In this document: positions 25,961 to 53,714 of the stretch, one piece after another
Position numbering within the stretch: the first letter of the stretch is position 1
How the letters are laid out: the number at the start of each line of letters is the position of its first letter
Source: Octopus vulgaris
Taxonomy: Eukaryota
DNA: 64,000 nt
Assembly (NCBI GenBank): GCA_951406725.2
Contig: OX597815.1
Coordinates: 197,160,001 to 197,224,000 of the forward strand
Reading direction: 5' to 3'
Translations under genes and position numbers: made by a program
The notes under the pieces: generated by a model
The model's input: only the letters and a program-made list of their open reading frames with translations
What the model was told of the DNA's origin: nothing
The model's database searches: none

Positions 25961-26039
<79 letters not shown>

Positions 26040-27193
26040 AGCACACACATATACATACACACAACTCAATCACAAAACACACACATACACAAATACACAC
26101 ACACATAGGTACACAGATTGTTATTATTCAGAGCAATTTTCAACTCACCAACACCACTGAAATAATATCTAGCTAGAATCTATTATCTCTCTTTCAAATC
26201 ATCGTTTGACACGGTGATAATAATTTTCAAAGTGATCCTCAGAATGGAAAAACTCACAATCCAACTAAATTACCATTTATATTTGGGATTAAAGAATTGT
26301 CTACGGGGCCAGTGATGGAGTCTTAACAGGTCACATTTTCTCCTCAAAATAATACACAATCGTCTTGAAAGCAAAAGCAAAAGGACATATTGGATGATGT
26401 AATTCTTATTACACAATGCACAAATGGACGACATTATATCTTTGACAAAAGCGCATATGTTTGTAATACAATACAGGCAGTTATATTCTGGAAACAAAGA
26501 ATAATAACAGCAGCCGTTCAAGAATTTGGACCTGGAGATCTCCATTTCCAGCGACTTCGGGGGCCACCTCCCAGTGGTGTTGGGCGTCAACGAAGAGCGC
26601 TCGACTACAACAAGACGACCAAAGTTTTTTTTCCAAGGTCTGGGGTCTCCCGCCCCTAAGCCCTATACCATCCCCTAATCAACCTTACCCGTCTTTTTTA
26701 TTAACAACAAAACAACAACAGCAGCAACAACAATATATACCTAACATTGTTTAGGTGAAATGACTCAGGGATCTCGCAATGACGATTTTTCTTACGTTGG
26801 AAATTCAGACTGCACAATATTGCTAGAATTATAACATCTACATATCTGCTATACTGTAACGGAAAGACAACGGCTAATGCCGCGATCTATAATAGTTGTA
26901 TTCATATGATGAAATTATATGAAAGAAGGGACGCATCGTGCGTTTTGTGCAAGAAATATTCGCAGTAATTTTAGTGAATACCTCTTGAAATATTAATAGT
27001 TATCGCCAAGCTAACATGGCAGTCCAGATAAATAGGATGAATGCTGCCGTTGATTAGCTCCAAGAGGCTATCGCCTCTAGCTAGCTATGTGACACATAAA
27101 ACTGTGTCCATTATAACCTTCGAGCAGGGTTATAATAGACAAATTTTGAAGTGATTCACTTCAAAATTTGATACTGATTAGAAGATCGAAAAT

Positions 27194-27237
27194 CCACCTG
27201 AAGATTGTCGGTAGCAGACATGAAACATTTGTAGTGG
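27194..27237 (+). ncRNA. Minimal type I hammerhead ribozyme motif
   Basis: CCAC-CTGAAGA-T-TGTC-ggtagca-GACA-T-GAAA-CATTTG-TA-GTGG. Confidence 0.75.
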
Positions 27238-29546
27238 CGGTTTATTTAATTTATATTAAAATTTTATGTATTGATTAAGTCTTTCCTTGTTTGGTTTTAA
27301 AATAGTGGTTTTGTCTCGAATTATATTATATAATATTTTACTATAAAATTGGATTTAACCCTAAATCTGATTTTTTCCCTGTAATTTTGGATTCATTCCC
27401 TAATATATTATTATTATATATATATATATATATATATACATATATATATTTAGTTTTGGACAAAGAAACATAAAGGAACGCAGTGTAAATAACGGACGGA
27501 GTTAAGTCTATTGAAAAGGTTGCAAGACGCAAGTAACATTTTAGGAAAATAAAAATAAGAAATACGTGAAAATTTTACCGTTGAGTGTGTTAAATTATAA
27601 GGCACAAAAAGAAAATGACTCTCTCCAGACGCAACAGCATATATAACATAAAAAAATATCTGAGCAAACTATGGGGTATTTAGTCGTTAGTGTAAATAAG
27701 TTGAAAAATTTTGCCACTGAGTTTCTTGTGAGTGTGATCGTGATCCTTTGCCCATGTCTTCTATGTGTGAATGGGAAATTCACGAATGATTGCTGTATTT
27801 GTTTGCAGCATTTAGTTCGAGCGCACGTCTCCAAATGTATGACGTTCTCGTGATTCGTTTCACGTAAATAAAAAGTGTTGTAGTTCACTTGCCAGTTAAT
27901 GGAGTTATAATAATCATACTTTTCCCCGGTTAATTTGGCTTCTATTTTATAAGTAATGCTAACACTTCATGGAATACTTAGTTGTCTTTTCTTTTTTCTT
28001 TTTTTACATATTTCACGGTGATTTCATCACGTTATCTATAAATCCCATTTACATTATAAACTCCATTTTGATGCAGAAAAGTGCACCAGTTTACATTTAC
28101 ATGTATTTCGTGTATTTTTCAGTTTGTAAGTACGTAAATGTTTTATAGAAACAGAAACACAGAAAACAAACAAACAAATATTAGCCAGTTAAGAGAGAGC
28201 ATAATCATAACATATTTAAGAGAAAAATTGTTATTTCCACAAAAATTGATAAACGAATATAAAGAAAAGAGATAAACGCAATCTAAATAAACCAGTGCAA
28301 GCAAACAAGCATGATTATCCTGTAAACATTGTATTGTCTCAGCTTCTTCAATATAAAAACATAAAATCATATAAAACGTTGCTGCCTAATCTACTAAGAG
28401 GAAATTTAGTTTCTCTGCTTACTTAGATGTAGCCTAATTGTATTTTCGTGATCTAGGTCAGCCACAGTAGAAAAATCTATTCTTTGCATCTCCCTTGTTT
28501 TTGTTGGTTATGTGTTCAGCTTTTTTTTTTTATGTCTGAAAAATCTCTCCATCGTTCTCTTTTTATTTTTTAACTATGTCTCAAGATATATATTTTCTGT
28601 TTGTTTTTCCCCTTTATTCGTGCTATCGATAAATCAAATGTTTATCTACCACATACTATGCTTGTTTATCTGCTTTCATTTAACGTTATATAGAAGAAAG
28701 GTCAAAAACATATCTGAGATGGAGTAGAAAACATAACGTTTGTCCCACATACTCAAGTGTGAAACACTGTAAGCAAGATGTAGAGCTATAAAACACGAGA
28801 GGGAAATGAAAAACAAATGGAACAGGATATAATGAAAAGTGTTTCGGTCGTATTACTAAATATAGCGTATATCATGTATTTAAAAAAAAATAATTCTATA
28901 AAATAAAATACAGATGCATTTTCAAAAATGTATACGTGCACTTAGGGAACCTATTTAATAATAGCCGAATACATATACACATATACAAATAAAGTTTATG
29001 CAAAAACGCACAGATACAAATACGTAGACATTCAAAGACACATTATAAAATAACAAAACAAAGGCATTTTTCAAAAATTCAATACTTGCACTAGGTGAAC
29101 CTACTGAATTAACAAATTGCCGAACGTATTTACACATATAAGAAAAGAGTACACATATATATCATAAACACACACGATTGCACATCAATACTATTTTATA
29201 TATTCATGTCCTTTGAAAATTTTCATTTACCGAGTTCTATCAATTGACGTACTTAATTACTATTTAGTTTTTCTTTTAAGAGTAGAATTAATAAATTATT
29301 TTAAAATATGAGCTATTATGGGAAATTTTGAATAATATTGAGGTTTAGTGCGTTTCATTTCTGTAAAGAACATTTTATTCCCCAGCAACTGCATAGACAA
29401 CATAAGGTTAACCGAAAAATTGTAAAGCTTGTTAAACTATATAGTATGTATTATCAATTTTTACCATCATCGAGAGATTCCTTTTTTTAATATTCAAACA
29501 TTTGATCGGTACCAGTTATTCATGCAGAATAACATTTACTTATATA

Positions 29547-53180: not shown

Positions 53181-53714
53181 ACTGGAATACACAGCAATAG
53201 ACCTATGTGTGTGTGTGCATCGATCACCGAGCCGGCATAACAAAACCGTGGATTAAAACATTCCTAAACCTGAGTTGGTCCGAAGGTAGTAGAACACAAT
53301 CTTTAATTAATAAAAATTTATTTTAATACAGACATATTATTTTGAGCCCACCTGTCCTGTGCATTAAAGCAATATAATCGTAACTATAATGTTGAAACAT
53401 ACGAGCAAATTATTAAAATATTTATGACTTGTAAGTACCAGTTCCAGAAATGCATTTAATATATCCAATAACTACACACCACTAGATATGGTGGGTATTT
53501 AAGTAATGTGTTCGAGGAAGATTAATGGATGGGACGGATGCTGATGAAGGAGAAAACGCCCTGAAATATAGCATATACACTCATTATCTGATTTACATCT
53601 TTAATCTCATGGTTTGTTTTCATCTGACGCCTGGTATACGAAACGTCGTTGCAAAAATCAGTGGCGGGTATAATTTCTATAGTATATCGATAAATATAAT
53701 TAAAAAAATGAATG

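Follow-up and report, generated by a model that had tools for sequence, protein, structure and literature searches.

The window analysed here is a stretch of 64,000 nt from the 2.8-Gb genome of Octopus vulgaris (contig OX597815.1, positions 197,160,001–197,224,000 of the forward strand). The analysis covers DNA only, and splicing, start site and ribozyme activity are read from it. Five inverted repeats and a hammerhead motif occupy 27005–27240, each confirmed at the position given by an initial annotation, which took them for a single structured RNA, either a retrozyme-like unit or a recognition element in the pseudo-long terminal repeat (pLTR) of a Penelope-like element (PLE). Both kinds of sequence are present, but not as one RNA. 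The two halves are two families on opposite strands, meeting head to head: family A, retrozyme-like, and family B, the leader of a PLE of the Hydra type. The features are as follows.

26990–27129, minus strand: family A fragment; 3' 140 nt of the unit, 5'-truncated, short 3' end at 26990.
27009–27059, minus strand: hairpin 1, AGCTAA/ATGGCAG stem, internal to family A.
27063–27078, minus strand: hairpin 2, AGAGGC/GCCTCT, internal to family A.
27091–27108, minus strand: hairpin 3, GACACA/TGTGTC, internal to family A.
27128–27141, plus strand: family A inverted stub; 14 nt of the second arm, one mismatch to the template; makes hairpin 4.
27140–27154, minus strand: family B inverted stub; 15 nt of the B 5' end; makes hairpin 5.
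~27154–27424, plus strand: family B copy; young pLTR (leader) copy of a Hydra-type PLE, without intron.
27154–27184, plus strand: family B exon 1; initiator-like TCACTT site (likely start 27154–27158) to splice donor.
27185–27424, plus strand: family B exon 2, joined directly to exon 1.
27194–27237, plus strand: type I hammerhead; PLE pLTR motif, uncut in the window copy.
27337–27424, plus strand: PLE tail, between the two 3' ends of the family (27336 and ~27415–27424); the window copy has the long end.
27415–27450, no strand: (TA)n, target of the family B insertion.

A genome search with 27128–27260 gives 66 matches to family B (best 40 of 1063 candidates), mostly 97–100% identical and starting near 27154. 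Copies near coding elements have the first 28 bases of the window copy, then GTATGT and an intron of 1260–1326 nt ending in TTTTTAG, and continue with the sequence from 27185 onward. In the window copy the exons are fused exactly at 27184/27185 and the GT...AG intron is gone. Genome-wide, exact 20-mers detect the spliced joint 315 times and the intron-keeping acceptor 94 times (controls, 0).

Intron-less arms are bounded at both ends. Upstream of the donor, 76 of 77 extend 33 nt or less and stop at TCACTT, and one reaches 46 nt; because exon 1 was part of many of the queries, short extents are under-sampled, but the upper limit is unbiased. A position-ordered sample (30 of 48 places) has 16 intron-less copies, of which 15 end no more than 33 nt upstream of the donor; the 14 intron-bearing copies all run further upstream. 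The 3' ends of the same 77 arms fall at exon-2 positions 148–152 (37 arms) and 239–257 (39 arms), the remaining arm being a short local duplication. Both fixed ends lie upstream of the start codon (ATG at exon-2 position 283), and no arm (0/77) reaches the open reading frame (ORF). Among the best 30 loci that do run into the ORF, 23 show the intron end, none the spliced joint, and 7 are uninformative; the only 3 exact leader-to-ATG matches in the genome are all among the 23. Of 9 arms that include 27 nt of exon 1, 7 have a G before the likely start base, a possible sign of cap copying that the partner arm explains in most.

The same loss is seen in a sister subfamily, ~73% alike around exon 1, with TCACTT kept and two GT donors 4 nt apart. 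Its joined forms were predicted beforehand and found at 424 exact places, at two donors. The first 100 listed joints comprise 77 at the first donor, 7 at the second, 15 at the second with the first GT changed, and 1 other variant. Where the first GT of a sister copy is altered, the joint lies at the second donor, 4 nt further on, so that DNA preserves a natural experiment in splice-site mutation. Within the window's subfamily, five exon-2 haplotypes, one with six variants, occur in both intron-bearing and intron-less copies (sample of 76 spliced, 39 unspliced and 7 truncated arms). Because both classes have these haplotypes in common, intron loss appears recurrent.

Family B is frequently inserted as two arms joined head to head. 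Such B–B pairs on C1–C4, for which both place lists are complete (90 intron-less, 30 intron-bearing places), are spliced/spliced in 26 cases, unspliced/unspliced in 4 and mixed in 0, with 7–11 mixed pairs expected (permutation P 1e-5). Pairs of the sister subfamily are concordant in splice form without exception (26/26; first versus second donor alone, P 0.0017). Arms share a variant in 18 of 33 pairs versus 4.1 in shuffles, one of the 33 spanning two neighbouring insertions and left in. One long and one short end are combined in 35 of 37 two-armed events. In 4 events each arm has sequence absent from the other; neither can therefore be a copy of the other, and both appear to have been copied from RNA. 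At L041 (C13:54647107-54650213) two two-armed intron-less insertions of different B subfamilies stand side by side in one TA run, and at L097:5440-5770 (C11:50843000-50852900) a 5'-truncated Neptune-type PLE meets an older B relative head to head, each with its own inverted stub.

An unlikely alternative is a single loss of the intron, or a few losses, at the DNA level or through one early retrocopy, after which a short intron-less master spread by means of the PLE enzyme as a non-autonomous family, like a short interspersed nuclear element (SINE). In its favour, the initiator-like site is retained in intron-less copies, which might thus be transcribed, their excess over intron-bearing copies is 315 to 94, and in one donor-mutant class pairs are more widely spaced and one copy has additional upstream sequence; one source per cell would also yield concordant arms. 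The five haplotypes common to both classes stand against this, as does the sister subfamily, which lost its intron at GT donors of its own and in two forms separated by 4 nt. Several exact GT–AG losses would then be needed, and these amount to spliced RNA being copied again and again. Intron-less copies may have gained in number by secondary spread as well.

In the probable reading of the region, an old retrozyme-like fragment on the minus strand meets, head to head, a young PLE leader copy without its intron, the latter likely reverse-transcribed from the element's own spliced sense RNA into a cut TA repeat. The element's protein, with reverse transcriptase (RT) and GIY-YIG parts, would nick both strands and use each DNA end as a primer on the same RNA molecule, at two internal start sites (exon-2 positions ~152 and 240–256). 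Since both sites would lie within the leader of the spliced mRNA, this mRNA would yield only a 180–290-nt ORF-less copy reaching back to its 5' end. ORF-bearing copies would arise only by priming in the downstream pLTR, on a long RNA that is unspliced or read-through, and would therefore keep the intron. A somewhat favoured generalization is that the 'intron retention' of PLEs is an effect of RT start position and not of an antisense template: spliced mRNA ending before the downstream pLTR would give only ORF-less leader copies, and full elements would come only from unspliced read-through RNA. If true, a SINE-like class (>700 exact joints, two subfamilies) records the start site and splice isoform of single germline RNAs.

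At the A–B joint the two stubs overlap by 2 nt. Hairpin 4 (ATTATAACC/GGTTATAAT, 27110–27136) is extendable to 27105–27141 with one mismatch; hairpin 5 is a perfect 15-bp repeat (27140–27170) and forms the centre of many B–B head-to-head insertions. Palindromes at pLTR 5' ends are described for PLEs in PMC3846280. Hairpins 4 and 5 are apparently inversion scars at the 5' ends of the two inserts. The right-hand B cDNA would have reached the RNA 5' end and folded back over 15 nt, and the 2-nt microhomology would have joined the folded-back end to what was left of an earlier two-armed insertion of A, centred on hairpin 4. The B insertion would have taken place at a TA run beside A, whose right arm has presumably been mostly deleted. 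No target duplication flanks the combined A+B insert.

Contigs from runs X3 and X5 span the left junction of A, reaching 38 and 52 nt into A respectively, and their flank differs from the window at 12–14 of ~390 nt; contigs of X2 and X7 reach 28 and 30 nt into A, below the bridging limit. The B copy of the window differs from several intron-bearing copies by 0 substitutions and 2 gap positions in 228 nt. As ~4 substitutions would be expected (own estimate) if B were as old as the X3/X5 split, B most likely entered after A. One X5 contig, possibly orthologous, has the same A fold-back point and continues as A.

Joint insertion of A and B, with each break end primed on a different RNA and the cDNAs joined at their folded-back tips, is very unlikely. 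It would account for the outward 3' ends of both inserts, as in two-armed insertions, for the short left and long right end, and for the 14–15-nt stubs on both, a comparable two-stub joint of unlike elements being present at L097. However, A is common to diverged runs and has private changes, B is nearly unmutated, no target duplication surrounds the whole, stubs occur without A (L036, L050), and same-family pairs look single-templated.

Family A is known from a genome search with 26980–27260, which gives 63 matches (best 40 of 2907 candidates), the best non-self matches being confined to 26990–27129 at 93–96% identity. The window fragment holds hairpins 1–3 and the left arm of hairpin 4, and homology stops at 27129. 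The unit is non-coding, 343–361 nt, hammerhead-bearing and tandem at some places, with 2.6 units at L007/L018 (one place) and two hammerheads there and at L024. The hammerhead is type I with a U3–A8 core variant and a palindromic stem III, and the motif is present in most long copies; the window copy is without its own ribozyme, which sits further upstream in the unit. Copies are on average 5.4 of 140 bases off the majority (52 copies). Hairpin 1 is paired in 94–99% of cells in other copies. Two-armed A insertions have target duplications of 9–11 bp, judged by eye, in at least 5 of 23 rows. The 361-nt unit folded as a circle gives z −7.4, which is not evidence of a circular form. Stem-specific constraint is unsupported (non-CpG variation is 3.4% for stems, 8.1% for loops and 2.1% for other positions).

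By these features family A is classed as a putative animal non-LTR retrozyme, of which the window holds a fragment only. In common with these elements, as described in PMC7229834 and bioRxiv 10.64898/2026.07.22.740005, it has a non-coding unit, one type I hammerhead per unit, monomers and short tandems, and PLE-like insertion marks; it differs in the ribozyme-less window fragment, in the U3–A8 core, and in being known here from DNA alone. The core variant is known from Schistosoma PLEs (PMC4209133). A miniature inverted-repeat or foldback element with 140-bp terminal repeats is ruled out, inverted pairs having fixed outer and variable inner ends and the unit a hammerhead. A Helentron, suggested by end motifs, is ruled out by the same pattern of ends, the hammerhead and the 9–11-bp target duplications. 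No coding partner for A was found, PLE remnants being nearby only at L013 among 42 loci. There (L013:1195-2664) a decayed Hydra-type ORF (40–45% identical) is split by a two-armed A insertion; it is at most a candidate as A's partner. A 184-bp tandem repeat is located near A copies at L005, L021 and L023.

The fold of 27005–27240 has −75.5 kcal/mol and z −5.86, with 0 of 200 shuffles equally stable. Folded alone, the retrozyme part gives z −2.8 on the plus and −2.2 on the minus strand, and the hammerhead-bearing part z +0.3 to +1.1. The signal is thus uneven, and the two junction repeats (hairpins 4 and 5) appear to supply much of the excess. Rfam gives nothing in the window at gathering score and no hammerhead model in 26000–28500 at E≤10.

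That the five hairpins and the hammerhead form one functional structured RNA, whether retrozyme monomer or pLTR recognition element, is scarcely credible. The z of −5.9 for the whole and the conservation of hairpins 1–3 in family A would suit it; against it, the parts belong to two families on opposite strands, an A match adjoins a B copy only at the window locus among 275 loci screened outside the A set, hairpins 4 and 5 are junction products, and the minimum free energy (MFE) fold of the whole region does not form the hammerhead. Since hairpins 1–3 belong to minus-strand family A and hairpins 4–5 are junction stubs, the five are no recognition element for this hammerhead.

The B hammerhead has stem I at 27194–27197 with 27234–27237, core CUGAAGA at 27198–27204, GAAA at 27222–27225, and a predicted cut after A27233. 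Its 33-mer has 235 exact occurrences in the genome. Over 18 variants the core changes only at N7 and at one base of the cleavage site. Loop II is variable, and stem-loop III takes various near-palindromic forms, in keeping with a dimer-type ribozyme (PMC4209133). Tandem arrangement was found at none of the 90 intron-less places on C1–C4; the sole tandem is a 3594-nt ORF-bearing one. Judged by its sequence, family B is the copied, spliced leader of a Hydra-type PLE and not a retrozyme.

The coding partner was traced through L145, where family B sequence stands on both sides of a long ORF. Intact frames of 820–860 aa are present; the open frames compared with Hydra-clade members are 822–841 aa long. 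The partner ORF model built from 57 aligned relatives has a predicted local distance difference test score (pLDDT) of 84.8, and its top 11 fold matches are telomerase RTs; from the single sequence the pLDDT is 34. A PDB sequence search with the ORF gives no match. Motifs are DKT in place of DKG at residue 127 (in 52/58 aligned proteins), a CxCx5C linker at 690, VY..YIG at 710 (C-terminal GIY-YIG), and CxxC at 796 and CxH at 825 near the C terminus. CCHH is absent by eye, one Cys standing between VY and YIG versus two Cys and two His in the Neptune-type ORF. By these motifs the partner fits a Hydra-clade PLE; the N-terminal RWK motif is ambiguous, with KWK at residue 42 in this ORF and RWK in 41/58 relatives.

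Compared with Hydra-clade PLEs as described in PMC8557442, the partner likewise has a single ORF, telomerase-like RT with C-terminal GIY-YIG, DKT, CxCx5C, CxxC, CxH and no CCHH by eye, and family B likewise (TA)n targets, a type I hammerhead, and tandem and inverted pLTRs with a tail. It differs in a unit of ~6.2–6.3 kb in place of <3 kb (hammerhead-to-hammerhead distance 6167 and 6310 nt in L261 and L264; the Hydra-typical limit is not strict), an asparagine-rich linker, a tail of ~80–90 nt in place of 30–40, a 1.3-kb leader intron, and pLTR copies that are mostly intron-less in the genome. The supplement of PMC8557442 lists no leader intron for Hydra ('intron' appears twice, both for other elements) and has one cephalopod Hydra family, with a different hammerhead sequence. 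In the L264 ORF, residues ~490–600 form an asparagine-rich, low-confidence linker between RT and endonuclease, as reported for Adineta Penelope. A second Hydra-type family (L267:3414-6278; 955-aa frame, 44% identical) has an asparagine-rich linker too. A 781-aa Neptune-type family is ruled out as B partner, the pLTR not being shared and the protein match not significant. This young family (L091:2664-5006 and many others) inserts into (TA)n, ends at two 3' positions ~35 nt apart and has numerous intact frames of 781 aa; no hammerhead was seen at the first locus scanned.

Several points weigh against derivation of the window copy from spliced sense RNA as set out above. Most of the 23 ORF-running loci with an intron end are sister subfamilies and not the window's own, and single-variant haplotypes may be homoplasies. 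Two intron-less copies reach further upstream (46 nt in L045/L174; ~110 nt in L308). Arms could also agree because palindromes underwent gene conversion, or because cells expressed a single intron-less source. A later deletion, and not a fold-back, could have left the 15-nt stub. No contig covers the A–B joint (27142–27166) in X2, X3, X5 or X7, which proves nothing, and no empty site was found. In the partner ORF itself Pfam detects no domain, and among 58 relatives it detects GIY-YIG in 2 only. The B hammerhead shows no significant covariation: 10 of 12 pairs never vary, and the score does not exceed that of shuffles. As to L308 (C1:51338622-51341650, minus), the intron-less copy has ~90 extra upstream bases and a second exon 1 before them; it may be a two-intron splice product that used a promoter-like duplicate within the intron.

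Since 2003 it has been an open question why the introns of PLEs survive passage through RNA and how the head-to-head repeats of these elements arise. Penelope of Drosophila virilis (PMC2377424, PMC4209133) has the same arrangement of a short exon 1 and a leader intron just past the start (46 bp after it, PMC2377424), ending just before hammerhead stem I, and its spliced and unspliced RNAs coexist. Its genomic copies are described as keeping the intron, which is ascribed there to selection or unusual templates, whereas the octopus has hundreds of spliced copies, ORF-less where examined. Among the open literature searched, no report of spliced genomic PLE copies was found. In vitro work concerns one element, the Poseidon element PAc of Anolis (PMC11167929), with two internal RT starts bounding a tail, AT-rich targets, cutting and extension of both strands, and uncleaved hammerhead RNA as the template, all matching the reading proposed for family B; PAc starts lie inside the ORF and splicing is not discussed in the parts of the paper covered, whereas B starts lie upstream of the ATG. 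One sense RNA copied from both ends agrees with the PAc starts and two-strand extension, and not with an antisense template. Self-priming on antisense RNA, proposed in PMC3846280 to account for intron retention and palindromic joints, of which hairpin 5 is one, could apply to intron-bearing copies or where intron-less DNA copies are transcribed antisense, but is extremely improbable as the origin of the arms described here, since antisense RNA of an intron-bearing locus would neither lose a sense GT–AG intron nor end at a sense initiator, and 26 of 30 pairs on C1–C4 are intron-less.

Hundreds of exactly spliced copies, bounded at a putative start site and concordant between arms, are evidence at the genome level that a sense template is copied from both ends of the DNA; they also point to a young intact element and to a short RNA with which the idea can be tested. 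Dense hairpins beside PLE hammerheads can be insertion scars and call for caution.

Processed retrocopies and L1 twin priming show exact intron loss, a start at the RNA 5' end, and inversion by priming from both cut strands. Family B differs in having no poly(A) end, two internal starts, and arms that usually overlap the same RNA stretch.

Elsewhere in the window, two very high-copy repeats, recognized by depth and by a match to L043, flank the A–B region (26506–26700 and 27461–27645), and a crude scan gives further loose hammerhead-core matches at 53541 (plus strand), 33986 (minus) and 15270 (minus).

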